Positions 7,016-28,471 of a stretch of DNA of 53,945 nucleotides are shown here, one piece after another. Position 1 is the first letter of the stretch, and each line of letters begins with the position of its first letter. This DNA comes from Candidatus Kryptoniota bacterium (lineage in GTDB: Bacteria; Bacteroidota; Ignavibacteria; Kryptoniales; JAKASW01). The position numbers and the translations under genes are program-made. The notes beneath the pieces were generated by a model. The model did not search any database. It had not been told where the DNA came from and worked only from the letters and a program-made list of their open reading frames with translations. The stretch spans positions 1 through 53,945 of the forward strand of contig JBAPNE010000059.1 in assembly GCA_049278975.1 (NCBI GenBank). Reading direction: 5' to 3'.

Positions 7016-10000
7016 ATGAAGATGCGCGGGATTATTTTATCAACGTTGGTAATTCTTTTTTTTGCAGGCTCAATACACGCTCAAGACAGTGTGGATGTAA
7101 CTTTTTATTATAAGCCCACCGACAAACCTGCCGTCGTTTACCTGCCCGGCGAATTCAATAATTGGGCGAACAATTCAAACGGAGTTATTCCTTCCGGCTC
7201 GCCGACTGCGATGACTAAAGATTCCTCAACGGGCATTTGGTCGAAAACGTACAGACTACAGGTTGGCGGGTCTCCACTAGCAAATAGCAGCGCGAACGGT
7301 GAAGTTGCGGGTGCTTATCAATACAAGTTTAATGAAAACGGGACTTCTACCGGCTGGTCTCCTGATCCTCTTAACCCTTATCAGAATTCTGCGAACAATA
7401 ATAATTCGATACTGTATGTGAATAGTCCGACCATCTTTCACTTCCTTCCGAATTCAGTATCCGGGATTGTCAACTCGCAACAGCCAGTGTTCTCTGCTTA
7501 TATCTTTCCATCGCTCGCGAGCGGTGTCGACACGTCAACTTTTGTAGTTCAGATCGACACCGCCTCTTATAAAATTCCCGGGACCGCATTTAATTCTTCT
7601 ACAAACCTTTTGAGTTTTCTTTGCCCCGTTTCTTTGCAAAATGGCACACACAAGTTGAAACTCGTGATGGATAATCTTTCGAGCAATCCGGTATCTGACT
7701 CAACTTCAATTATTGTGCAAAGTGGGGCAATTCGAATTCTGAACCAAGGTGGACAAGTTACAATTTATCCAAGCATTATTCTCGTCGGCGTTCTCGAAGA
7801 CACATCGATTCATAGCGTGAGGATCGTTCAGAATGGAACGGATACGTCAACGGAGGTTCCCGCAAACAACGGAAACTTTTCTTTTGACGCAAAGTATGTT
7901 GATGGACTGAACACTTTTGTCGCGATTGCAAAGGACAGCACAGGAGCAACAATTGTCTCAAGTCCATTCACCATGACATATTTTGTGAATCATTCTCCAA
8001 ATGCCGTCATTAGTTTTTCCAATGACGGTGGCTCGATAACAATCTCTGCACAAAACAGCACCGATCCGGATTCCGGACAGACAGCGGAGCTGACTTATTT
8101 GTGGGGTGTCGATGCAACGAATCCTTCCGTGGTGAGCGGAGTCCAAGGTTCGACATCGTCATCGATGGCTGTCTCGCGGCCGTCAAAGCCGGGTGAGTAT
8201 TATTTCTCGCTTATCGCCTTTGACCCGAATGGTAATAGAGACACAACGCGCTCTTATTTCACCATCGACAACTACGACTCCGTGACATTTCCAACTTACG
8301 CATCAAATCCGGAGTGGGCGAAGGTGGGACGAATCTATGAGCTCTTCTTCAATTCATTTACTCCGCAGAAGACAATTAATGCGGCGACTCAAAAGTTAGC
8401 TTATCTGCAGGAGATGGGTTTCAATATTATCTGGGTTATGCCGGTGATGAAGAACAATCAACCTATGGATAACGGCTCGAACACTGGATACAACATCGTG
8501 GATTTCTACACAGTCGCTCCCGAATATGGCACGAATGCGGATTTCAAAAATTTCGTCGATGCGGCTCACCAGCTCGGCATGAAAGTAATTCTTGATGTCA
8601 CTCCTAATCATACAAGTTTCAACCATCCGTTTGTCCTCGATGCGCGATTATTTAAATCTTATTCGTTTTACTGGAATTTTTACCAGCATCAGCTAATCAT
8701 AAACCCCAATTACCATCCGAATATTTCAGAGTCGATTACGAGCGATGGGTTCGTTTACTACAGCGGCTATAGCGACGAACTTTTGAATTATAGCTGGAGT
8801 GACGTTGATGCGCATGCTTACATGGATGGGGTTTATAAATGGTGGGTCCAGCAGATGGGTCTTGACGGATACAGATTCGATTCGTACTGGGGGCCGCACG
8901 ACCGCGCGGATAATGGAAATGGCGGCGAGAATGAGATGGGAACTCCAACGAGGATTTTGCTCAAGCATATCAAGCCCGATGTTTTCCTTCTTGGGGAAAC
9001 TGCAGGTACCGGCGTCGGAACGGAAGTTAATTATGCCGATGATGGAGGTGGGGTCGATGCCGCTTATGATTGGAACCTGCTTCACAATGCGATCCAATCT
9101 TTTAATTTTGGAAGTTCTTCGAGCGTCTCGACTTTGAATACCTACGTCACGAACTATGGTGGTACGCAAATGGGATTTGTCCCGGGTCCCAACACGTTAT
9201 TCATGCGCTGCATGGAAAATCAAGATGAAGATCGAATCGCCTATACCTACGGTTCTTATGTGAAGACAATGCCAATGGGAACGGTGATCTTTACTGTGCC
9301 GGGAATCCCGATGCTCTATTCAGGGCAGGAGGTCGGCTACGGGTTGGGTATTTCGGGCTCTGACCAAGCCGACCTTGATTTACGCCGCCGAGGTGTAATT
9401 GATTGGAACAGTGCTGGTAAATCCCTTTTGACTCCGCATTATCAAAGGCTCGCCTGGATACGCGCAACTTATCCTGTGTTTTCAACTCAATTGTTCGATG
9501 AGTTGACGACAGGAAACTCTTTCGTATACGGTTACACACGCCCATATGCCGATCAAAATGGCATTGCGCTCGAGAACTTTAGCGGCTCAGCTGCAACTGT
9601 GAACATTACCCTCGTCGGTACGGGCAGCGACGCGAATGTCATTTTTCCGGGCGGAGAGATGGACGGCAAGACTTACTATTTGAACGATGTTTATAATGAT
9701 TCATCTTCTGAAGTAACATTCTCAGGGGGGTCGTTAAATTTTAGTGCGACTCTTCCGGCATACGGCTCGGCGGTTTATGTCCTTAGCGACTCGCTAATAA
9801 AATTGTCGGTGCCTGTGTTAACATCGGTAAAAACAGGTGACGATAAAATCCCCACTAACTACATGCTGGAACAGAACTATCCGAATCCATTTAACCCGAC
9901 CACGACGATCGGCTATCAGCTGTCAGCGGCCGGCAAGGTGACATTGAAGGTTTACGATGTGCTTGGAAGAGAAGTCGAAACACTGGTGAGCCAAAGACAG

Positions 10001-18417: not shown

Positions 18418-21171
18418 ATGAAGCCGGAAGAAGAAGCTCGAAGAATAATTGATGATTTACTTTCGGGGGCGGGCTGGGCAATTCAGGACTATCGCAAACT
18501 GAATCTTGGCGCTTCGCTTGGCATCGCAGTTCGAGAATTCCCCACGAAGACCGGTCCCGCTGACTATGTCCTCTTCGTAGATCGCAAAGCAGTTGGAGTG
18601 ATAGAGGCAAAGCCGGTCGGCACAACATTGAGCGGTGTTGCCGAGCAGTCGGCAGATTACATGAGCGACATGCCGGAAAACATTCCTCATATCCAGTTGC
18701 CCCTCCCATTCGGTTACGAAAGCACCGGCAAAGAAACTTTCTTCCGAGACATACGAGACCCTGACGCACGCTCGCGCCGGGTGTTTGCGTTCCACAAGCC
18801 GGAGACACTTGCTGAGTGGATTTCACAAGACGATACGCTTCGAGGAAGATTAAGGAATCTTCCGGAGCTAACGAAGGATAAATTGCGCGACTGCCAGTTC
18901 GAGGCAATTACGAATCTTGAAGAATCGTTCAGGGAGTCGAGGCCGCGTGCGCTAATTCAAATGGCGTCTGGAAGCGGTAAGACATATACTGGAGTAAGTT
19001 TCATCTATAGGCTCATCAAGTACGCGAACGCAAAGCGGGTTCTCTTCCTTGTTGACCGCAACAATCTTGGAAGGCAAACGAAACGAGAATTTGAACAGTA
19101 CATTACTCCGGACGACGGCAGGAAGTTTACTGAACTTTATAACATTCAACACCTCACGTCAAACACTATCGACCCCGTGCCCCGTGTTTGCATAACGACA
19201 ATCCAGCGACTCTACTCCATGCTGAAAGGCGAAAAAGAGTTCGACCCTGAAGCAGAGGAAGCTTCTCTGTTTTATTTAGCTCCACCTAATGGTCAGCCTA
19301 AAGATGTTGCATATAATCCTGACATTCCAATTGAGACGTTCGATTTCATAGTAACTGATGAATGCCATCGGTCAATTTACAATCTCTGGCGGCAGGTGCT
19401 GGAGTATTTTGACTGCTTCCTAATCGGGCTGACAGCAACACCATCGAAGCAGACGATCGGCTTTTTCGACAAGAACCTCGTAATGGAATATAACCACGAA
19501 CGCGCCGTCGCTGACGACGTGAATGTGGGATACGATGTCTATCGCATCCGCACAGACATCACTGAAAAGGGAAGCAAGGTGGAGGCAGGCTTCTATGTTG
19601 GCAAGCGCAATAAAAGAACACGCGAGACAATATGGGAACAGCTCGACGATGATTTCACATATCAATCGAACCAGCTTGACCGCGATGTGGTCGCGCCCGA
19701 CCAGATACGCACGGTTATTAAGACTTTCAAAGAGAAGCTGTTCACCGAAATATTTCCGGGACGGAAAGAAGTTCCGAAGACGCTGATCTTCGCCAAGGAT
19801 GACTCTCACGCCGAGGAGATAGTTCATATTGTCAGAGAAGAATTCGGGAAAGGCAACGATTTCTGCAAGAAGATCACGTACAAAACTCCAGGAGAGAAGC
19901 CGGAGGAATTGATACAGAGCTTCCGTAACTCGTTCTATCCTCGAATCGCAGTCACGGTCGATATGATAGCAACGGGAACCGACATCAAACCGCTTGAGTG
20001 CATTATCTTCATGCGCGATGTGAGATCGGTTGTCTATTTTGAGCAGATGAAAGGCCGTGGCACAAGAGTGATCGATTCAAACGATTTTCAGGCAGTCACT
20101 TACGACGCGAAGAATAAGACGCACTTTGTCGTCGTGGACGCTGTTGGAGTCTGCGAGTCCGACAAGACAGACAGCAGACCGTTGGAGAGAAAGCGAACGG
20201 TGCCGTTCGAGAAACTGGTCCAGTCCATCGCAGTTGGCGTCAGGGATGAAGACACCATCTCATCTCTTGCCGGTCGGCTCGCGCGATTGGAGCGAGAAAT
20301 AGGAGATCAAGATAGGAAAGAAATAGAAAAGCTTTCAGGCGGGAAAAGCATAAGAGAAATTGTGAACTCCCTTCTGGATGCGATTGACCCTGATATTCAA
20401 ATAAAACATGCAAAGCAGGAATTCAAAACTGACACTCCAACCGGCGAGCAATTGAAGAAGTCGGGAGAGCAGCTTGCCGCGAGAGCCTGCCTCCCGTTCG
20501 ATAATTCTTCTCTCCGCGAGACCATCATCGAGATACGAAAACGAAACGAGCAGGTCATAGACAGAGTGAGCGAAGACAAGCTCATCTTTTCTGGATTCGA
20601 CGAGAATGCGAAGGAGAAGGCAAAGAGCACAATTGAGACGTTCAAGAAGTTTATTGAAGATAACAAGAATGAGATTGATGCGCTTCAGTTGATATACAGG
20701 AAACCTTATGGCCAGCGACACCTGACATACGAGATGATAGAGAATCTAGCGGCAGCGATAAGAAAGCCGCCGTATCGTCTGACGGAAGAAGTGGTGTGGC
20801 ACGCTTATGAACAGCTTGAGAAATCTAAAGTTCGCGGGGCCGGTCCGGCGAAACTCATGACCGACATTATCGCATTGGTGCGCTACGCCATTGGAGCAAG
20901 CGATGTGCTTGAGCCGTTCCCTGAAATGGTTGAAGAGAAATTCAAGCGATGGATTGCGAGGCAGGAAGAGCAGGGACGTGAGTTCAAGCTGGAAGAGATG
21001 GCGTGGCTCACCATGATAAAGGACCACATCGCAACGTCCGCCGTTATCGGATGGGATGACTTCGACAACATTCCGTTCAGCGACAAGGGTGGAAGGGTTA
21101 AGGCGTACCAAATATTCGGAGACAAGTTGGAAGGCATCATGGTCGAATTGAATCGGGAGCTGGTGGCGTGA
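18418..21171 (+). CDS. hsdR: Type I restriction enzyme R subunit (EcoEI-like, with the C-terminal EcoEI_R_C-type domain)
   Basis: N-terminal PD-(D/E)xK nuclease region GPADYVLFVDRKAVGVIEAKPVG. Helicase motif I is MASGSGKT and motif II is VTDECHRS. The long helical C-terminal domain is typical of EcoEI-type HsdR. hsdS and hsdM lie downstream. Confidence 0.9.
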   Translation: MKPEEEARRIIDDLLSGAGWAIQDYRKLNLGASLGIAVREFPTKTGPADYVLFVDRKAVGVIEAKPVGTTLSGVAEQSADYMSDMPENIPHIQLPLPFGYESTGKETFFRDIRDPDARSRRVFAFHKPETLAEWISQDDTLRGRLRNLPELTKDKLRDCQFEAITNLEESFRESRPRALIQMASGSGKTYTGVSFIYRLIKYANAKRVLFLVDRNNLGRQTKREFEQYITPDDGRKFTELYNIQHLTSNTIDPVPRVCITTIQRLYSMLKGEKEFDPEAEEASLFYLAPPNGQPKDVAYNPDIPIETFDFIVTDECHRSIYNLWRQVLEYFDCFLIGLTATPSKQTIGFFDKNLVMEYNHERAVADDVNVGYDVYRIRTDITEKGSKVEAGFYVGKRNKRTRETIWEQLDDDFTYQSNQLDRDVVAPDQIRTVIKTFKEKLFTEIFPGRKEVPKTLIFAKDDSHAEEIVHIVREEFGKGNDFCKKITYKTPGEKPEELIQSFRNSFYPRIAVTVDMIATGTDIKPLECIIFMRDVRSVVYFEQMKGRGTRVIDSNDFQAVTYDAKNKTHFVVVDAVGVCESDKTDSRPLERKRTVPFEKLVQSIAVGVRDEDTISSLAGRLARLEREIGDQDRKEIEKLSGGKSIREIVNSLLDAIDPDIQIKHAKQEFKTDTPTGEQLKKSGEQLAARACLPFDNSSLRETIIEIRKRNEQVIDRVSEDKLIFSGFDENAKEKAKSTIETFKKFIEDNKNEIDALQLIYRKPYGQRHLTYEMIENLAAAIRKPPYRLTEEVVWHAYEQLEKSKVRGAGPAKLMTDIIALVRYAIGASDVLEPFPEMVEEKFKRWIARQEEQGREFKLEEMAWLTMIKDHIATSAVIGWDDFDNIPFSDKGGRVKAYQIFGDKLEGIMVELNRELVA

Positions 21172-21289: not shown

Positions 21290-21317
21290 CCGCCTAAAAG
21301 GGGGATTATAGGGGGTT
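21290..21317 (+). repeat. 28-nt direct repeat, left copy, ending 3 nt before the DUF559 start codon
   Basis: ccgcctaaaagggggattatagggggtt compared with ccccctaaaagggggaccacagggggtt at 21861-21888: 24 of 28 positions identical by eye. Confidence 0.7.
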
Positions 21318-21320
21318 CCT

Positions 21321-21890
21321 ATGCCACGGTACTTCAAATACGCCAAAGGCTCGATTGACAAAGCCAGAAGACTCCGCCGCGCGATGACGGACGCGGAACG
21401 TAAGCTATGGTCGAAGCTGAGAAACGAACAGCTTGGCGTCCAGTTCAGAAGACAAGTCCCCGTCGGTCCTTACATAGTGGATTTTATTTGCATCAAGCGA
21501 GGGCTTGTCATCGAAGTGGACGGCGCTCAGCACTACACCGATGAAGGAATGGAATACGATAAGATTCGCACAACGTATCTGGAGAATGAAGGACTGACCG
21601 TAAAACGGTTCGGTAACCACGACGTGCTGACGAATATTGATGGAGTGGTACGGGAAATACTGGAGTTGCTGGAGAAGCAGGAAATCCGCAAACCTCATCC
21701 TGTCCTTCCCCTGTTAGGGGAAGGAACGAGTTCGCAACCAGCAGAGGAAACCCACTCTTCTGAGGATGAAAACACAAAAACAAACCGTCCCCTGTTAGGG
21801 GAAGGGACGAAATCTTCAAAGTCAAAGAGAGTCCCTGGTAGAGTTCCTGAAATAAACTGTCCCCCTAAAAGGGGGACCACAGGGGGTTGA
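21321..21890 (+). CDS. DUF559 (Vsr-like fold) endonuclease-domain protein with a repeat-derived C-terminal extension
   Basis: ARRLRRAMTDAERKLWSKLRNEQLGVQFRRQVPVGPYIVDFICIKRGLVIEVDGAQH...KRFGNHDV is the typical DUF559 core. Residues after about 120 (PLLGEGT twice, then PPKRGTTGG) are translations of the CCCCT..AGGGG palindromes. Confidence 0.8.
   Translation: MPRYFKYAKGSIDKARRLRRAMTDAERKLWSKLRNEQLGVQFRRQVPVGPYIVDFICIKRGLVIEVDGAQHYTDEGMEYDKIRTTYLENEGLTVKRFGNHDVLTNIDGVVREILELLEKQEIRKPHPVLPLLGEGTSSQPAEETHSSEDENTKTNRPLLGEGTKSSKSKRVPGRVPEINCPPKRGTTGG
21705..21725. repeat. CCTTCCCCT-gtt-AGGGGAAGG palindrome (family copy 2), inside the 3' part of the DUF559 ORF
   Basis: Perfect 9-bp arms with a 3-nt loop, followed by aacgag as in copy 1 (aacgta). 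Confidence 0.8.
21861..21888 (+). repeat. 28-nt direct repeat, right copy, ending at the DUF559 stop codon
   Basis: See 21290-21317. It contains the palindrome CCCCCT-aaa-AGGGGG. Confidence 0.7.
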
Positions 21891-21987
21891 TGAATCGCAT
21901 CGGCAATATATCATGGATAATCCGGCAAAATGGGAATCCGAGAGCAACGAAAATGATGGTATTATGCGGAGGAGTTGAAATAAAGCC

Positions 21988-24210
21988 ATGAAAATCAAAC
22001 TGGTCAAAGACTGGGACACAGGGATTCAACCACCAATCGGCAAATCAAAAGTGAAAGGACACTTTGCCGGAAGGAAAGATGAAGTAAGCAAGTTGACTAA
22101 TGATCTCCTCAATAGGGAAGAAGGCGCGATTTTGATCAGTGGCTACCGAGGTGTGGGAAAGACTTCCTTTGTTTACAAATGTCTATCGAACGCGCTAGTC
22201 AACGAAAAGGGTGCTCTCGTAGTCCTTCTCAATGCGCCCCAACTACAAGACGACGACGGTAAGGTTGTTAAGAATCTTATTCGTCGACTTTACTCGGCAA
22301 TCAAAAACGAAGATACCGTTAAAAGAAACCTTAAAGAAGATCTCGAAACCTTATATAGAAAAGCGGTCTCAAAGGAGTTCAGTCTCCAACAAGTTTTTCA
22401 AAAGCAGGCTGAGATGTCGGTTTCATCTAACAAGGAACAAGGAATCGATATCAGTATTTCCGAAAGAGATTGGAGAACAATTGTACTAATCACTTCTTGG
22501 TCATTGGCCATGATATTGCAGCTCTTTCCTGCCACAGACTGGAGTTGGTTTAACAAAATTGTTCCATTGCTACTTGCCCTACCTGTTCCTTTTGGATTTA
22601 GTCTCTGGTATAAAAAGAAGAAAGTTAAGGAAGAAAAGAAAAGTCTGTTCGGATCAGCTAAAGAGCTTTACGAATTTGACAACAGCGCGGGTAATTTAGA
22701 GTCGGATTTGCGTGATCTTCACGAGCAGTTGTATAATGGCGGACACAAGGTTGTATATGTGATAGATGAGTTGGATAAGTTGGCGAATGCTCAAGCAGCG
22801 TTAGACATCTTCAGCAAGCTAAAGAATCTCTTCACTCTTTCGAAAGCTCTTTTCATTATCATCGGCGATGAGGAACTGTATAGCAAGGCTAGCGTGAAAA
22901 CGAGTTCGCAAAATGGTTTTCGGGCAAAAGAATACACATACTTCACTCATAAGTATTTCATTGCGAGACCTTCATGGACTGACCTAAGTGATTATATCGA
23001 TGAAATAGTTGACAAGAAGGAGATTGACGAACCTAGTTACAGCAATTTAAAGCATGCATTGCTTTTTGAATCTCAAAACGATTTCTTTGACCTTCTTGAA
23101 AGGATTAGAGACAGGATCACTTCTTATGATGGTCGTCAACCCGTAATTGAGTTCGAAGCGCTCTCAGACGAGGATGTCAAGAAAGCAAAATTGCACAAGG
23201 CAGTCGTCTTAGTATTCGAAGAGAAATACAAAAGCGAAATGATTTCAAAATGGCAGGAGAACGAACTAATCATTCGCCATCTTCTCGCACATGCGAAAGG
23301 GATTGCAGAAGACTATGTTGGGTTCGAGATTCAAGATGGTCAATCAATAGATATGTTGGACTCAGCAAAGAGGAACTTTAATGGACTGCTTTCGCGAATC
23401 GGAGCGTTGACCGTGATTCAAGAAGATACCTGCAACGTGAGTGGATCGTCCGTCCGAGTAAATAAATACAGATACGAAGGTTTGGTGCCGCGAGACCCAC
23501 CGAAACACTTAACTGAACCCAGCGAACTGGAGCTAAAATTTCTGGATGCTTTTGGGCGATATTGCGATTACATCGTGTCAATTATCAACTCATTTCATAT
23601 TCCAACCGGAAAGCCAACACTTTCGAGACATGAACTGCTTGAACATCCGACTGAATATCTTGAAGAATTGAGATCTCCACAAACAGATGTGAGTAATCCA
23701 TTCAGTAGCGGGCGAGAAATTTATCTTAACCTGACCACCAAACTGCCGCCCACAGTTTACAAAAGAGACCAGATAGAGCAAGCCACATCGAATGTCTTGA
23801 ATCAAACCAAAAACCTTCTTGCCAACATTCGATTGATCTTTATGCATATGATTAAAAGGTTCAATTCCAATGAATTACAGGATCAGTTGCTTTCATCAAA
23901 CAATAACTTGTTTGTGGGCTCGGCTCAGGAGATCAGAAATTTCCTAGGAGCTTTTCAACATATCGTCGTCTTTAAGCGCGACTTATCAAAGCAACTATTG
24001 ATTCTTGAAAAGACTGATGCTAGCGGCGAGAAGATTCGGCAGGTACAGGGAATCATATTGACACTCACAGACAAATTCATGATTTTAGTGATCGGTGCCG
24101 GTGCTAAACCTATTGATGACGTTTTGAACGTAACAACTGATTCTCCTGACGAATTGCGGAAGACAGGGATGGATGCGGTGGGCCAAATAAGAGACTTTTT
24201 CGGGCTCTGA
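21988..24210 (+). CDS. P-loop NTPase with two TM helices inserted between Walker A and Walker B (KAP-like topology) and a C-terminal region of about 470 aa with no recognised motif
   Basis: FAGRKDEVSKLTNDLL...AILISGYRGVGKTSFV carries Walker A (22141-22167). The hydrophobic segments TIVLITSWSLAMILQLF and IVPLLLALPVPFGFSLWY (22474-22611) are followed by KKKKVKEEKK. Walker B is VVYVIDELDKL (22750-22776). The stop TGA shares one base with the hsdS ATG. Confidence 0.75.
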   Translation: MKIKLVKDWDTGIQPPIGKSKVKGHFAGRKDEVSKLTNDLLNREEGAILISGYRGVGKTSFVYKCLSNALVNEKGALVVLLNAPQLQDDDGKVVKNLIRRLYSAIKNEDTVKRNLKEDLETLYRKAVSKEFSLQQVFQKQAEMSVSSNKEQGIDISISERDWRTIVLITSWSLAMILQLFPATDWSWFNKIVPLLLALPVPFGFSLWYKKKKVKEEKKSLFGSAKELYEFDNSAGNLESDLRDLHEQLYNGGHKVVYVIDELDKLANAQAALDIFSKLKNLFTLSKALFIIIGDEELYSKASVKTSSQNGFRAKEYTYFTHKYFIARPSWTDLSDYIDEIVDKKEIDEPSYSNLKHALLFESQNDFFDLLERIRDRITSYDGRQPVIEFEALSDEDVKKAKLHKAVVLVFEEKYKSEMISKWQENELIIRHLLAHAKGIAEDYVGFEIQDGQSIDMLDSAKRNFNGLLSRIGALTVIQEDTCNVSGSSVRVNKYRYEGLVPRDPPKHLTEPSELELKFLDAFGRYCDYIVSIINSFHIPTGKPTLSRHELLEHPTEYLEELRSPQTDVSNPFSSGREIYLNLTTKLPPTVYKRDQIEQATSNVLNQTKNLLANIRLIFMHMIKRFNSNELQDQLLSSNNNLFVGSAQEIRNFLGAFQHIVVFKRDLSKQLLILEKTDASGEKIRQVQGIILTLTDKFMILVIGAGAKPIDDVLNVTTDSPDELRKTGMDAVGQIRDFFGL

Positions 24211-25661
24211 TGGAAAGCCCGTCTAACGTGGAACATTGCCTGCCGAACGGTTGGGTGCGTACAACCCTCGGTAGTGTGCTTAGTTTCGTAAAAGGGAAAA
24301 AGCCTTTGAATCTTGGAAGCAAATTAGACAATAGCTTCCTTCCATACGTCAACATTGAGGCATTTGAAAAAAAGATACTTTCGCAGTACGCCAGGGCTGA
24401 TGGCCATCCAACATGTAACAAAGACGATGTATTAATTGTCTGGGACGGCGCAAGATGCGGATTGGTCGGAAGAGGTGTTGATGGAATAATAGGATCAACT
24501 CTTGCAAAGCTTCCTTACGACGAAATGGACGGTTCGTTCATCTTTTATTTCCTGCAATCGAAATATAATTTGATAAACAAGAGACCAAGGGGTGTAGGTA
24601 TCCCTCATGTTGAACCAAATCTATTCTGGAGCATCGTTTTTCCTCTTCCTCCACTTCCCGAGCAGCATCGCATCGTCGCGAAGATAGAAGAGCTGTTCTC
24701 CGACTTGGACGCGGGCATCGAGGCGCTGAAGAAAGTCAAAGCTGAACTGAAGCGATACAGGCAATCAGTGCTCAAGGCAGCCGTGGAAGGAAAACTCACT
24801 GCTCCATGGCGTGAGGCTAACAAAGGGAAGGTGGAGCCCGCGGCGGTACTTCTTGAGCGAATACGAGCGGGACGAGATTCTGTAAGGGCACGGCATGCCG
24901 TGCCCCAACGACAGGCAAAAGACCTTCCACCAATCGATACGTCCGAGTTGCCAAAGTTGCCGGAAGGGTGGGAGTGGACAAGAGTTGGTACGGTTGCCGA
25001 GACGTGCCTGGGGAAGATGCTTGACAAGGTGAAAAACAAAGGTGAGTATCAACCATATCTCCGCAACATAAATGTTCGATGGGGAGGGTTTGATCTAAGC
25101 GATTTGAGTCAAATGAAGTTTGAACAAGATGAAGAACAAAGGTATGGGTTGCTCCATGGCGACCTCGTTGTGTGTGAAGGTGGAGAACCGGGGCGAGCCG
25201 CTGTCTGGACTGGTACACCCGGCATGAAGATTCAAAAGGCGCTTCATCGAGTTCGCTTTGTGGCAAATACCGTGACGGCCGAATTCCTCCAATCTTACTT
25301 GGAACACGCTGCCAAAAACGGAATCTTGGAGAAATATTTTACTGGAACCACCATTAAACACTTCACCGGAGTCAGACTGGCTGAGTTTGTTCTTCCGTTG
25401 CCACCATGCCAAGAGCAACTTCAAATCGTCTCCGAAGTCGAGCGGCGACTCTCGGCTGCCGACGAAGTAGGGACATATTGCGATATGTCCCTACGGCAGG
25501 CGGAACGGTTGAGGCAGAGCATTTTGAAAAGGGCGTTTGAAGGGAAGTTGGTGCCGCAGGACCCGACGGATGAACCTGCATCGGTTTTATTGGAGAATAT
25601 AAAGAGGAAAAAAATAGAAGAAAAAGCGATAAAAAGTTCAAATAAAAGAGGTAAAAAATGA
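24210..25661 (+). CDS. hsdS: Type I R-M specificity subunit with two target-recognition domains
   Basis: Two TRDs are separated by conserved helices: LPPLPEQHRIVAKIEELFSDLDAGIEALKKVKAELKRYRQSVLKAA and LPPCQEQLQIVSEVERRLSAADE...RQSILKRAFEGKLV. Confidence 0.9.
   Translation: MESPSNVEHCLPNGWVRTTLGSVLSFVKGKKPLNLGSKLDNSFLPYVNIEAFEKKILSQYARADGHPTCNKDDVLIVWDGARCGLVGRGVDGIIGSTLAKLPYDEMDGSFIFYFLQSKYNLINKRPRGVGIPHVEPNLFWSIVFPLPPLPEQHRIVAKIEELFSDLDAGIEALKKVKAELKRYRQSVLKAAVEGKLTAPWREANKGKVEPAAVLLERIRAGRDSVRARHAVPQRQAKDLPPIDTSELPKLPEGWEWTRVGTVAETCLGKMLDKVKNKGEYQPYLRNINVRWGGFDLSDLSQMKFEQDEEQRYGLLHGDLVVCEGGEPGRAAVWTGTPGMKIQKALHRVRFVANTVTAEFLQSYLEHAAKNGILEKYFTGTTIKHFTGVRLAEFVLPLPPCQEQLQIVSEVERRLSAADEVGTYCDMSLRQAERLRQSILKRAFEGKLVPQDPTDEPASVLLENIKRKKIEEKAIKSSNKRGKK
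24886..24905. repeat. Perfect 20-nt palindrome GGGCACGGCATGCCGTGCCC inside hsdS, read in frame as ARHAVP
   Basis: Read directly from the sequence. A sister copy lies at 27159-27178 in hsdM. Confidence 0.9.
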
Positions 25662-25688
25662 GATTAATATCGATGAAAAACGTTATTT

Positions 25689-25717
25689 AAAAGTCTCATT
25701 TTAACGAAATGACTTTT
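25689..25717 (+). terminator. Imperfect hairpin after hsdS
   Basis: aaaagtctcattt / aaatgactttt with one bulge, followed by an AT-rich tract (ttattat). Confidence 0.35.
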
Positions 25718-25737
25718 ATTATATTATAACTACTTAT

Positions 25738-25765
25738 AATTTAGTTTCGAGCGTGAAACTAAATT
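25738..25765. promoter_or_regulatory. 11-bp perfect inverted repeat AATTTAGTTTC-N6-GAAACTAAATT upstream of fic
   Basis: Read directly. The arm shares AGTTTCGA with the downstream tandem repeats. Confidence 0.45.
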
Positions 25766-25780
25766 ATGGGAATCTATAAT

Positions 25781-25840
25781 AAAGTTTCGATATCGAAAAT
25801 AGAGTTACGATATCACAAATAAAGTTTCAATATCAGAGAA
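25781..25840 (+). promoter_or_regulatory. Three head-to-tail 20-bp repeats (possible operator or iteron-like sites) ending 18 nt before the fic start
   Basis: aaagtttcgatatcgaaaat / agagttacgatatcacaaat / aaagtttcaatatcagagaa, with the core GTTnCnATATC at an exact 20-bp period. Confidence 0.5.
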
Positions 25841-25858
25841 AGTCAAAAATAAGGAAAA

Positions 25859-26992
25859 ATGGACTTCAAAGAGTTCACAGCCGGAACGTACACTCAACAG
25901 TATCAGTACAAGAGCTTCGGCCCATCAACGATAAATCACGAGTGGACGTGGTCTGATCCTAAAATCAATATCCTCCTAGCCGATGCCAGTCGAAAATTGG
26001 GTGAACTTAACGCCTTTGCAGCGTCGGTTCCTGATGTCGACATTTTCGTAAGGATGCATGTGGCGAAAGAAGCGACCAAGTCGAGCGCAATCGAAGGGAC
26101 AAGAACCGAGATCGAAGAGGTTGTTTTGCAGGAACAAGATGTTCTTCCAGAGAAGCGAGACGACTGGAATGAAGTCCAGAATTATATCTCCGCGATGAAC
26201 ACTGCCATTGAACGGCTGAAAGAAATGCCGCTCTCCACCAGAACGTTGAAGGAAACTCATCGTACGCTACTCCAGGATGTCCGGGGAGAACACAAGACTC
26301 CAGGCGAATACCGCACAAGTCAGAATTGGATCGGCGGTGCAACGCTGGATGATGCAACGTTTGTCCCACCTCATCATTCTGAAGTCAATGCGTTGATGGG
26401 TGACCTTGAAAATTTTCTTCACAATCCGAACATCGATGTTCCGAGACTGGTTAGAATTGCGATAGCGCATTATCAGTTTGAAACTATTCATCCGTTCCTC
26501 GACGGCAACGGGAGAATCGGTCGGTTATTAATAACGCTTTATCTTGTGAGTGAAGGGCTTCTCTCTAAACCGACTCTCTATCTCTCTGACCATTTAGAAA
26601 GACACAAGACTTTATATTATGACAATCTCATGCTTGTCAGAACTCGGAACGACATAGGCCAGTGGGTGAAGTTCTTGCTCGCCGCCGTAATGGAGACCTG
26701 CGACAAAGGAATTGAGACCTTCAGAAAAATACTCAAACTGAAAGATGAAATTGAAGGCAATAGGCTTGTGACTCTCGGCAGGAAAACGAAGATTGCGAAG
26801 TCCTTCTTGAATCATCTTTACAGTAATCCTGCTACCGACGTTGCGAGGGTGAAGGAAGTTCTGAACTTGAGTCAAGCATCGGCGAATTCGCTTGTGGCGG
26901 ACTTTGAAAGGCTCGGGATTCTTAAAGAAATCACTGGGTTCAAGCGCAACAGGTACTTTCTGTTTTCGGAATACATAAACCTCTTCAAATAG
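25859..26992 (+). CDS. fic: Fic-domain protein (AMPylase-type) with an N-terminal inhibitory-helix motif and a C-terminal wHTH-like region
   Basis: Fic motif HPFLDGNGRIGR (26489-26524). An SxxxEG motif, SSAIEG, lies at about 26081-26098. The stop is 9 nt before the hsdM ATG. Confidence 0.9.
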   Translation: MDFKEFTAGTYTQQYQYKSFGPSTINHEWTWSDPKINILLADASRKLGELNAFAASVPDVDIFVRMHVAKEATKSSAIEGTRTEIEEVVLQEQDVLPEKRDDWNEVQNYISAMNTAIERLKEMPLSTRTLKETHRTLLQDVRGEHKTPGEYRTSQNWIGGATLDDATFVPPHHSEVNALMGDLENFLHNPNIDVPRLVRIAIAHYQFETIHPFLDGNGRIGRLLITLYLVSEGLLSKPTLYLSDHLERHKTLYYDNLMLVRTRNDIGQWVKFLLAAVMETCDKGIETFRKILKLKDEIEGNRLVTLGRKTKIAKSFLNHLYSNPATDVARVKEVLNLSQASANSLVADFERLGILKEITGFKRNRYFLFSEYINLFK

Positions 26993-27001
26993 CGAATCCA
27001 A

Positions 27002-28471
27002 ATGTCTAATGAATCATCCACGATAGTTCAGCGTCTCTGGAACTACTGCAACGTCCTCCGCGACGACGGCGTAAGCTATGGCGACTACGTCGAGCAGTTG
27101 ACGTATCTCCTTTTCCTCAAGATGGCTGATGAACAAACGAAGCCGCCATTTCGTGTCGGGGCACAGCATGCTGTGCCCATACCAGATGGTCTCGACTGGG
27201 AAAGTCTTATCAAGAAAGACGGCGACGAGCTTGAGGTTCATTACCGACATGTCCTCGATTCTCTCGGCAAGGGATCTGGAATGCTTGGCGTGATATTCAG
27301 AAAATCTCAGAATAGAATTCAAGACCCTGCCAAACTTAAGAGGCTTGTCGAATTGATCAACGATGAGACCTGGATGGGTTTGGACGTCGACATTAAAGGT
27401 GAGATTTACGAAGGCTTGTTGCAGAAGAACGCTGAAGACGTGAAGAGTGGCGCGGGACAGTATTTCACTCCGCGACCGCTGATTAAGGCCATGGTTGATG
27501 TCACTCGTCCTGAATCCATGATGACAATTTGTGACCCCGCATGTGGGACCGGTGGCTTTTTCCTTGCCGCACACAATCACCTTGAGCACAAGCAGCTCGA
27601 CAAGAAACAGAAAGATTTCTTGAAGGCAAAGACTTTCAAAGGCTGGGAGATTGTAGATAGCGCGGCAAGGCTTTGCGTAATGAATCTTTACCTCCATGGC
27701 ATCGGAGGTGAAGAGAGTCCGATTACCGTAGCTGACAGTTTGGCATCGGAACCAAGCGAGCACTTCGATACTGTCCTAACAAATCCGCCTTTCGGCAAGA
27801 AGAGCAGCATCACGATAGTGAATGGAGAAGGAAAGGCCGACAAAGAATCCATCATGTATGAGAGGCAGGACTTTTGGGCTACGACTTCCAACAAACAGCT
27901 AAACTTTCTACAGCACGTGAGATCGCTTCTAAAACAAAATGGGAAAGCAGCAATCGTCGTTCCCGATAATGTTCTCTTTGAAGGCGGTGCAGGCGAGACA
28001 GTCAGGAGAAAGTTATTGCATGATTGCGACGTGCATACACTCCTTAGACTTCCGACTGGTATTTTCTATGCACAAGGTGTGAAAGCAAACGTACTTTTCT
28101 TCGAGAGAAAGCCCGCCAGCGAAAAGCCATGGACTGAGAAACTCTGGATATACGACTTGCGAACGAACACACATTTTACTTTGAAAACGAACACCCTCAA
28201 GTACGAAGACCTCAAAGATTTCATAGACTGTTACAATTCGGACAACCGTCGAGATCGTAAGGAATCCGAGCGGTTCAAAGTATTCACGTATGAAGAGCTT
28301 ATGCAGCGCGATAAAGCCAGTCTCGACATATTCTGGCTGAAGGATGACAGCCTTGAAGACTCCGCGAATCTACCCGACCCCGATGTAATTGCGCAAGACA
28401 TCGCAGAAAATCTTGAGGCTGCGTTAGAGCAGTTCAAGAGCGTTAGGGAAGGACTAGAGAACGGGAAGTAG
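27002..28471 (+). CDS. hsdM: Type I R-M N6-adenine DNA methyltransferase subunit
   Basis: HsdM N-terminal domain LWNYCNVLRDDG...YVEQLTYLLFLKMADE. AdoMet motif DPACGTGGF and catalytic motif TNPPFG. Confidence 0.92.
   Translation: MSNESSTIVQRLWNYCNVLRDDGVSYGDYVEQLTYLLFLKMADEQTKPPFRVGAQHAVPIPDGLDWESLIKKDGDELEVHYRHVLDSLGKGSGMLGVIFRKSQNRIQDPAKLKRLVELINDETWMGLDVDIKGEIYEGLLQKNAEDVKSGAGQYFTPRPLIKAMVDVTRPESMMTICDPACGTGGFFLAAHNHLEHKQLDKKQKDFLKAKTFKGWEIVDSAARLCVMNLYLHGIGGEESPITVADSLASEPSEHFDTVLTNPPFGKKSSITIVNGEGKADKESIMYERQDFWATTSNKQLNFLQHVRSLLKQNGKAAIVVPDNVLFEGGAGETVRRKLLHDCDVHTLLRLPTGIFYAQGVKANVLFFERKPASEKPWTEKLWIYDLRTNTHFTLKTNTLKYEDLKDFIDCYNSDNRRDRKESERFKVFTYEELMQRDKASLDIFWLKDDSLEDSANLPDPDVIAQDIAENLEAALEQFKSVREGLENGK
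27159..27178. repeat. Perfect 20-nt palindrome GGGCACAGCATGCTGTGCCC inside hsdM, read in frame as AQHAVP
   Basis: Read directly. It differs from the hsdS copy only at the symmetric pair G..C versus A..T, so the palindrome is preserved. Confidence 0.9.

Follow-up and report, generated by a model that had tools for sequence, protein, structure and literature searches.

The S and M subunit genes (hsdS and hsdM) of a type I restriction-modification (RM) operon in a Candidatus Kryptoniota bacterium carry three short palindromic elements, which sequence comparison identifies as members of the GTAG-tagged super-family of repetitive extragenic palindromes (REPs). The operon lies on a 53,945-nt stretch of DNA (contig JBAPNE010000059.1 of assembly GCA_049278975.1, positions 1 to 53,945 of the forward strand), which is referred to below as the window. 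We consider it likely, with a probability of about 0.8, that the three are solo double-foot REPs seeded by a REP-associated tyrosine transposase (RAYT) that once resided in the operon. Alignment with related genes shows them to be specific to certain lineages, where they were added to hsdS and hsdM in frame or took the place of existing sequence. In-frame insertion of a small palindromic mobile repeat had been the first of several options raised in a sequence-only reading of this DNA, and it is the one borne out by orthologue alignments and by the existence elsewhere of a high-copy, GTAG-tagged REP with the same sequence.

Palindromic elements in the window

Two of the elements, REP-A and REP-A', had already been noticed as near-identical 20-mers, GGGCACGGCATGCCGTGCCC at 24886-24905 in hsdS (24210..25661, + strand, 483 aa) and GGGCACAGCATGCTGTGCCC at 27159-27178 in hsdM (27002..28471, + strand, 489 aa). 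Each is a perfect palindrome, and mismatches between them fall only at the symmetric positions 7 and 14, with G..C in the hsdS copy and A..T in the hsdM copy; coordinates, palindromy and this difference were all confirmed. Both copies begin at codon position 2 ((24886-24210) mod 3 = 1 and (27159-27002) mod 3 = 1) and encode A(R/Q)HAVP, as had been described, within (V)RARHAVPQ in hsdS and (V)GAQHAVPI in hsdM. The full unit is 28 nt long: REP-A occupies 24882-24909, in the hsdS linker between the target recognition domains (TRDs), as GTAA-GGGCACGGCATGCCGTGCCC-CAAC, and REP-A', of the A..T subfamily, occupies 27155-27182, in the part of hsdM encoding the N-terminal domain, as GTCG-GGGCACAGCATGCTGTGCCC-ATAC, so that each foot is degenerate by one mismatch. 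A third hairpin, REP-B, had escaped the sequence-only reading; it belongs to another subfamily, has exact GTAG...CTAC feet, and lies in hsdS at 25467-25494 (GTAGGGACATATTGCGATATGTCCCTAC; GTAG-GGACATATTGCGATATGTCC-CTAC), where it encodes VGTYCDMSL in the C-terminal coiled-coil helix of HsdS. The three window elements have stems of 8-12 bp and fold as single-stranded DNA (ssDNA) with energies of -10.1 (REP-A), -9.0 (REP-A') and -10.7 kcal/mol (REP-B), z-scores ranging from -3.0 to -8.4, the last being that of REP-B.

A search of the window allowing up to three mismatches returned only GGGCACGGCATGCCGTGCCC and GGGCACAGCATGCTGTGCCC, and none was obtained in 100 dinucleotide-preserving shuffles. 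The claim that two such copies are not due to chance therefore stands, but the support sought for it in their shared reading phase does not. The GTAG-footed unit can be read as VGARHAVPL or RGTACRAPT, both of which occur in RAYT genes, while the third frame contains TAG; because an intact GTAG foot closes one frame and leaves two open, agreement between two copies has a probability of 1/2, and the common phase of the hsdS and hsdM copies is weak evidence. Their co-occurrence in these two genes is better explained by a former RAYT in the same operon.

The 3.36-Mb assembly to which the window belongs contains two copies of the 20-mer in total, both genic, even when four mismatches are allowed, and the 20-mer as a genome-wide repeat of the host genome was thereby rejected; the wider search that had been suggested found no further copy at home and many in other phyla. 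A census of GTAG-headed perfect hairpins in this genome gave about eight, three of them inside the 4.3-kb RM cassette. Further solo double-foot GTAG elements of other subfamilies were seen on two other contigs, GTAGGGGCGAATCATGATTCGCCCCTAC at C192:1143-1170 and GTAGAGGTTTGAACGATCAAACCTCTAC at C279:3557-3584.

Filled and empty sites in related operons

Comparison with 120 HsdM homologues, 78-92% identical, showed that the site of REP-A' is empty in nearly all of them. The segment reads KPPFNK-----PSTIP in 117 of the 120, and three sequences differ, namely the window (KPPFRVGAQ-HAVPIP), P0002 of locus L126 (KPPFSVGARHAVPIP) and P0001 of locus L127 (KPPFSRGMSIHAPAIP). In L126 the DNA at this site is the canonical G..C palindrome, with GTCG and ATAC feet as in the window. 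L127 holds a different GTAG hairpin, GTAGGGGCATGTCGATACATGCCCC, in the other reading frame and with a net gain of 15 nt; because both hairpin and frame differ at the same hsdM site, it is an independent hit on that spot.

In the HsdS linker, the window and P0122 (L125) have LLERIRAGRDSVRARHA(V/M)PQRQAKDLPPID where the nearest homologues have LLERIR(A/T)ERAK-(D/N)(G/A)K(A/G)K-(T/K)(I/L)PPID, which lengthens the linker by about eight residues net; among homologues the length of this linker varies in any case. The corresponding empty site in hsdS of L136 is LLERIRTERAKDGKAKTIPPID. REP-B departs from this pattern of gain: relative to empty orthologues it is an equal-length swap, in which 28 nt (GTTGAGAAGACTGTGGAAACGGGCCTCA, the sequence of L136 at the empty site; EVEKTVETGLKQ) are replaced by the 28-nt element (EVGTYCDMSLRQ). 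The ssDNA fold of the ancestral 28-mer is just -2.3 kcal/mol. Net length changes are thus +24 nt for REP-A, +12 nt (four codons) for REP-A' and 0 for REP-B. The alignment of orthologues that had been called for accordingly identifies the codons of REP-A and REP-A' as an insertion, with most homologues empty at the sites.

The hsdS and hsdM insertions are separable in related genomes. The hsdM site is empty in L125, although its hsdS bears the element with a single uncompensated change (GTG to ATG). G017, of the same genus, shows the same hsdS state and likewise an empty hsdM site. Because both contain hsdS copies without the hsdM element, alignment shows the two insertions as separate events. 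The hsdS of L125 carries three REPs, among them a hairpin, GGGCGTATCGCAATACGCCC, near its N-terminus.

Other kinds of sequence are found in the same linker. At the position of REP-A, the hsdS of L128 (5543-7099) contains a short tandem repeat, GGAGACAGGAGACAGGAGACGGGAGACAGGA, translated as ETGDRRRETG, and P0125 and P0128 have similar GD/GT-rich expansions, so the linker absorbs several kinds of insertion.

The sequence-only reading had proposed that such repeats are tolerated in loops, which holds for the first two sites and fails for the third. In an AlphaFold model of HsdS (mean pLDDT 90.9), the REP-A residues sit where helix 211-228 ends and extend into the internal segment of lowest confidence, whereas those of REP-B lie in the middle of the confidently predicted C-terminal helix 400-443 (pLDDT 96-97). 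The HsdM model has a mean pLDDT of 40, its alignment being too shallow, and the placement of site 2 in a loop comes from the alignment alone.

The records from which the HsdM homologues derive bear names as disparate as Candidatus Methanoperedens, Micrarchaeia, Syntrophales, Nitrospirae and Patescibacteria, among others. On this measure the RM cassette is exceptionally mobile across domains, since archaeal and bacterial records share at least 78% identity in HsdM.

The GTAG-tagged family in other genomes

A scan of one genome per prokaryotic species found the 20-mer at no fewer than 120 loci, where about nine were expected by chance. Among the matches listed, the loci belong to Acidobacteriota (especially Bryobacterales), Chloroflexota, Planctomycetota, Omnitrophota, Cyanobacteria, Proteobacteria and one Methanosarcinales archaeon, and the flanks of the copies have nothing in common beyond a 5' GTAG and/or a 3' CTAC. 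In the same matches GTAG is present on 142 of 284 sides, the next most frequent tetranucleotides being GCAG (8) and GTAA (7); 94 of the 142 copies have one tag, 24 have both and 24 have none. From these tag counts the unit is GTAG plus the 20-mer (24 nt), often double-footed (28 nt), and the family can be written, on the evidence of the aligned flanks, as GTAG-GGGCACGGCATGCCGTGCCC(-CTAC).

Copy number reaches 294 in a Bryobacterales genome, followed by 176, 151, 137, 121 and 82, and is 1-6 elsewhere; nine of 14 genomes sampled have 18-294 copies. At the same loci, copies were rarer in long open frames than random positions were (32% versus 67% in frames of at least 250 aa), in stop-to-stop statistics that are crude, overestimate coding overlap in GC-rich genomes and serve as a relative comparison. 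Between 36 and 90 kb of an acidobacterial contig (G048:C2), dozens of doublets of this palindrome, spaced at 130-160 bp, extend over about 55 kb as a REPIN-like local hot region.

A short foldable palindrome, a GTAG foot, complementary stem subfamilies and a cognate RAYT, the features of the super-family, were thus all found; dispersal in many copies was found in other genomes and is lacking in the host genome, with its two genic copies. The compensated difference between REP-A and REP-A' is, from the pattern across the family, the usual mode of variation among REP subfamilies. Among the matches listed, the stem pair concerned is G..C in 113 copies, A..T in 25 and asymmetric in five, and in copies outside the ascertainment of the search pattern every stem pair was kept in nine of 13 with two mismatches and in 18 of 24 with four. 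Pairing would be restored in about one of 57 cases if the second hit fell at random. Both changes of the compensated pair are CpG transitions. Since the window and L126 share insertion and feet and hold different subfamilies, the subfamily has switched at this site. The switch could be the product of two mutations with the stem under constraint, of correction templated by the hairpin, or of re-seeding. Complementary stem subfamilies are a described property of REPs (PMC3733652), and constraint on the stem fits enzyme recognition of a folded single strand (PMC3479197; PMC8266576).

RAYT genes that carry the hairpin

The link to a transposase came from G008, whose single copy of the palindrome of REP-A (palindrome A) lies beside a weak match to Pfam Y1_Tnp. 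The 200-aa open reading frame (ORF) there, at 8878-9480 on the minus strand of L138, is a RAYT, ...MPDHIHGIVVIVGKS-VGARHAVPL-QNN...VWQRNYYEHIIRD...RQYIMDNPAK, in which the palindrome is translated immediately after the HuH strand. All four copies of palindrome A in genus relatives (one in G008, two in G006 and one in G016) are in RAYT genes, and the palindrome is also found inside RAYT genes of Dehalococcoidia, Anaerolineae and Planctomycetales metagenome-assembled genomes. Loci with palindrome A in or flanking a RAYT gene comprise, besides G008, G006 and G016, L023, L078, L035, L142, L144, L145, L151, L153, L155, L158 and L176. Of 80 RAYT relatives from metagenomes, 63 have an embedded GTAG hairpin, which is palindrome A exactly in nine, and more than 20 have the same hairpin repeated nearby. 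Embedded hairpins come after the HuH strand and are read in either open frame, as VGARHAVPL or RGTACRAPT.

By NCBIfam REP_Tyr_transpos, the L128 enzyme scores 80.5 bits (cut-off 80) and that of G008 64.6 bits, below the cut-off; a sequence search of the PDB with the G008 RAYT gave no match. TnpA-REP subclass 2.4, which equals RAYT group 4 of Bertels et al. 2017, is defined by an HuH motif NH[IFV]H, WQ, a catalytic Y, a YIxNNP tail and a length of about 194 aa, and comprises double-foot REPs as well as REPs in frame inside the tnpA-REP genes themselves (Quentin et al. 2018, PMC6006769). In alignment, the G008, L128, L023 and L078 enzymes have these features, with HuH motifs NHVH (MPNHVHG, L023), NHMH (MPNHMHG, L128) and DHIH (MPDHIHG, G008), WQ in VWQRNYYEH, YIxNNP-like tails (YIINNP, YIMDNP) and lengths of 195-204 aa. 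These RAYTs match subclass 2.4 in their motifs and length, in having double-foot REPs and in the REP that lies in frame between HuH and Y.

Several RAYT genes are broken at this very point. L139 (G006:C2, ~225.5 kb), L140 (G006:C2, ~280 kb) and L141 (G016:C161) are frameshifted or truncated directly past the embedded palindrome A. A RAYT remnant in the host genome itself (C150:21807-22127, minus strand) joins the N-terminal strand (RRSIRLKDYDYS...YFVT) to a palindrome, GTAGGGGCGATTCATGAATCGCCCC (GAIHESPL), of which the C192 element GTAGGGGCGAATCATGATTCGCCCCTAC is a compensated variant; its HuH segment is lost in a deletion that ends at the embedded hairpin. Because all four break at the embedded REP, the REP may be a fragile or cleavage point of the RAYT gene.

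RAYTs in type I RM operons

In G008 the order of the homologous operon is HsdR (83% identity)-RAYT-HsdS (54%)-Fic-like-HsdM (87%), and the RAYT there holds the exact palindrome in frame. In L128/G022 and in G024, HsdR is directly followed by a second RAYT type, 45% identical, with the embedded hairpins GGGCGTATCGCAATACGCCC and GGGCATATCGCAATATGCCC. The latter is one compensated pair apart from REP-B of the window, the G024 copy being a half-converted intermediate. The RAYT genes of L128/G022 and G024 embed the cognate hairpin of REP-B, and GGGCGTATCGCAATACGCCC is the hairpin that recurs in hsdS of L125.

In the window, the slot between hsdR and hsdS is taken by a DUF559 gene and an NTPase gene in place of the RAYT. 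A stub at 21888-21978 (+ strand; NRI, with a 1-nt deletion, RQYIMDNPAKWESESNEN...stop) follows directly on the right-hand copy of a ~26-nt repeat that flanks the DUF559 gene. The stub was found by reading the sequence, an initial tblastn of the genome having missed it; tblastn gives it a local E of 2e-5 to 2e-4 and a genome-wide E of 0.2-1.9. It is identical to the tail of the G008 RAYT at 31 of 33 nt over RQYIMDNPAK, lies between hsdR and hsdS, where G008, L128, G022 and G024 have intact RAYTs, and recurs at the start of L125. Slot, DNA identity and the shared stub in L125 together make a convincing case that it represents the 3' tail of a RAYT of the type-A lineage, whose own hairpin is palindrome A. 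The DUF559 cassette probably truncated the gene, since its right repeat abuts the remnant. Apart from this stub and the C150 remnant, no RAYT gene of this clade, and none that is intact, was found in the window or the genome.

The association extends to other operons. Type I RM genes stand beside the RAYT in seven of 80 metagenome loci and in none of 120 palindrome-only control loci (Fisher P = 0.0014); the query alignment held two RM-resident RAYTs and the control set is imperfect, so this enrichment is suggestive. The RM-flanked loci include distant RM families, with 26-68% identity to the window subunits. L144 has the layout of a classical REPtron: HsdR, a REP-A doublet, RAYT and REP-A. L187 (4215-4340 and 8952-9389) is a second, unrelated type I RM operon: both hairpins embedded in its RAYT gene, GGGCGCAATTCATTGCGCCC and GGGCGTGATTAATCACGCCC, are found again in the stretch from hsdR to hsdS, and the RAYT appears to have seeded its neighbours.

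Origin of the elements

In the explanation we favor, REPs would move as ssDNA through the action of REP-associated tyrosine transposases (HUH/Y1), in this case of TnpA-REP subclass 2.4. A RAYT resident in the mobile type I RM cassette would have seeded cognate hairpins into the neighbouring hsd genes by local hopping during single-stranded phases, and the survivors would be only those events that preserved frame and fold (net +24, +12 and 0 nt here; +15 nt in L127). Destruction of the RAYT by the DUF559 cassette would have followed, with the REPs left behind as translated fossils, while pressure on the stem, or self-templated correction, would have kept it paired through the change from G..C to A..T. 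For the restriction enzyme, the elements most likely serve no dedicated function.

A number of points weigh against this explanation. No REP transposition was observed here and the mechanism of insertion is inferred; to our knowledge, direct transposition of a REP in vivo has not been reported anywhere. Simple insertion does not explain a 28-for-28 replacement, nor gains of +12 and +15 nt from a unit of 24-28 nt. The genome has no intact RAYT of this clade, and the events may for that reason have taken place in an earlier host of the cassette. The RAYT remnant in the window is short and not significant by genome-wide E alone, and the test for RAYTs beside RM genes shares the imperfections of its query and control sets. 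Finally, 26 of the 28 nt of the hsdM copy are kept between genes that are just 79% identical; this retention is not significant (P ~0.05-0.08), and it could hint at selection on the DNA.

One alternative is that the REPs are working sites at which a cassette-resident RAYT cuts and rejoins DNA at module boundaries and so exchanges specificity domains or whole hsd modules, in the manner of hsdS shufflons. RAYTs do recur within type I RM operons of several families, and the cassette lineage has REPs at the TRD boundaries (ahead of TRD1, between the two TRDs and after TRD2) and at the hsdM N-terminus, with three in the hsdS of L125. The hsdM site that holds different REPs in different frames in related genes, the like-for-like swap of 28 nt at site 3 and the repeated breakage of RAYT genes of the genus exactly at the embedded REP would also be accommodated. 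The genome, however, has a single hsdS and no silent TRD copies, and REPs at different boundaries belong to different subfamilies. Traces of actual exchange do not coincide with REPs either: the hsdS genes of the window and L125 share a 98%-identity block from 24640 to 25594, and neither edge lies at a REP, that of the TRD1 exchange (~24640) being in a conserved region 245 nt from the closest one, so REPs as the boundaries of TRD exchange were rejected. Recombination between the two palindromes had also been raised in the sequence-only reading; Logan contigs of four metagenome runs, in which each palindrome was spanned, contained no joints or variants, a weak test because only contigs were searched. 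The RAYT of the window is dead and the operon is intact nonetheless. Taken together, these observations make exchange at REPs very unlikely.

A broader version has little chance of being right either. In it, mobile type I RM cassettes would have RAYTs of subclass 2.4, with their double-foot REPs, as partners favoured by selection; the RAYT would cut and rejoin at boundary hairpins in hsdS and hsdM to swap 28-nt slots, specificity domains or hsd modules, and the cassette would carry the RAYT/REP system across phyla. If true, it would explain the identical 20-mers from Acidobacteriota to the window lineage and the different REPs at one hsdM site, and also the replacement of 28 nt in the HsdS helix and the RAYTs broken at their embedded REP.

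Selection on the hairpins as cis-elements of the RM operon, either as an operator for a dimeric regulator or as RNA or DNA hairpins that tune the ratio of hsdS to hsdM expression, is more doubtful still. Perfect palindromes in both of two subunits that assemble as M2S1, stable as ssDNA hairpins (-9 to -10.7 kcal/mol) and with a stem preserved by a compensated change, would suit such a role, and in the hsdM element the window and L126 agree at eight of nine third-codon positions, compared with a background of 49% (P = 0.018). Since 7.8% of 28-nt windows in hsdM are as conserved, this signal is treated as not significant, and extra synonymous-site conservation of the palindrome was discarded as a candidate. 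The elements are missing from 117 of 120 close HsdM homologues and from most HsdS homologues, they lie 680 and 160 nt within the ORFs and outside promoter regions, and the hsdS copy of L125 and G017 has an uncompensated mutation. No controller (C-protein) gene is present among the Pfam matches of the operon. The shared operator that the sequence-only reading had put forward is further contradicted by the 20-mer itself, which occurs up to 294 times per genome and in hundreds of unrelated contexts in other phyla.

An origin of the palindromes in situ, whether by chance or through template switching at quasi-palindromes (which can perfect palindromes and could yield compensated changes), and with no tie to mobile REPs, can be set aside in spite of the natural GTAG (Val-Glu codons) at the 5' edge of site 3 in L127: the identity of the GTAG-footed 20-mer across genomes, with hundreds of copies in other phyla and others inside RAYT genes of the same genus, excludes de novo origin, such 20-mers are not expected by chance, and three elements of exact 28-nt architecture fall within a 4.3-kb cassette when the whole genome has about eight.

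Relation to known systems

Elements of this kind have been published, and it is the setting, a type I RM cassette that hosts or once hosted a RAYT, for which no description was found; literature searches returned no paper linking RAYTs to type I RM operons, and none on the 20-mer or on the peptides VGARHAVPL, GTACRAPT and GHGMPCPY. Intragenic GTAG-tagged REPs were described in the GTAG super-family (Di Nocera, De Gregorio & Rocco 2013, PMC3733652), which shares with the present elements hairpins of 20-40 bp, the GTAG foot, complementary stem subfamilies and the presence of some members in frame in known genes. The in-frame REPs were argued to occupy linkers or loops, and recB of two Xanthomonas species holds different REPs at about one site, a parallel to the hsdM hot spot (PMC3733652). 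The genes listed in that study function in DNA repair or replication, whereas the elements of the window reside in the S and M subunit genes of a type I RM system; the present case also differs in that the host genome is nearly without other copies and that one element swaps helix residues with length unchanged.

Unlike the subclass 2.4 RAYTs described (PMC6006769), those considered here are nested in a type I RM operon, and in the window only a 3' stub is left. TnpA-REP cleaves and strand-transfers single-stranded REPs in vitro (PMC8266576), and the REPtron of E. coli (TnpA-REP/YafM with REPs and bacterial interspersed mosaic elements; PMC3479197; PMC8266576) follows the same logic of an HUH/Y1 enzyme acting on a folded ssDNA hairpin with a GTAG guide-like tetranucleotide. 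It differs in belonging to subclass 2.2 and in having REPs that are imperfect, bulged and extragenic, with hundreds per genome.

Palindromic DNA that enters genes in frame has a further precedent in the Rickettsia palindromic elements (RPEs), reportedly described by Ogata and colleagues in 2000 as selfish DNA within protein genes that is translated as extra surface peptides. RPEs are ~100-150 bp long and specific to Rickettsia, and we know of no transposase for them; the units in the window, by contrast, measure 24-28 nt, occur in many phyla and have a cognate RAYT. Inversion shufflons of hsdS (e.g., PMC7394358) likewise combine a gene for a DNA-rearranging enzyme in a type I RM locus with repeats at hsdS TRD boundaries, but here hsdS has no duplicate or silent counterpart, a tyrosine or serine recombinase is lacking, and there are no inverted repeats shared between hsdS copies. 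The palindromes also differ from an RM controller operator, the C-box in the promoter upstream of a helix-turn-helix controller gene, in lying inside the hsdS and hsdM ORFs.

These operons offer a clean natural record of REP behaviour, in which independent in-frame gains can be dated and compared with matched empty sites, the transposase gene survives in a sister operon and a dead stub remains here. An hsdM site hit by two REPs in different frames, a 28-nt replacement and RAYTs that break at their own hairpin all bear on how REPs spread, and the wide movement of the RM operon suggests a horizontal route for RAYT/REP systems, whose inheritance is generally taken to be vertical. In annotation, VGARHAVPL, RGTACRAPT, VGTYCDMSL and similar peptides are to be taken as marks of translated REPs and not as functional motifs.

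Operon layout and neighbouring genes

The genes of the operon are arranged in the order hsdR, DUF559, KAP/AAA NTPase, hsdS, fic, hsdM, all on the + strand. HsdR (18418..21171, 917 aa) matches Pfam HSDR_N, ResIII, Helicase_C and EcoEI_R_C, HsdS, the product of the only hsdS gene in the whole genome, matches Methylase_S, and HsdM matches HsdM_N and N6_Mtase. The fic gene between hsdS and hsdM (25859..26992) encodes Fic_N and Fic domains. Upstream of hsdS lies a passenger gene for a KAP/AAA-type P-loop NTPase of 740 aa (21988..24210), and its stop codon overlaps the start of hsdS. The sister operons L136 and L137 have DUF6978 and DUF1828/1829 in place of this gene, and G008 and L128 lack it as well.

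The DUF559 gene (21321..21890) lies in a segment, 21293..21889, bounded by the ~26-nt direct repeat CCTAAAAGGGGGAYYAYAGGGGGTT at 21293-21318 and 21866-21889. CCCCT...AGGGG palindromes occur around and within the 3' part of the gene, and its ORF is extended to 189 aa in the window, compared with 148 aa in L136 and L137. From its repeats, the DUF559 segment looks like a small mobile cassette whose right end lies against the RAYT stub.

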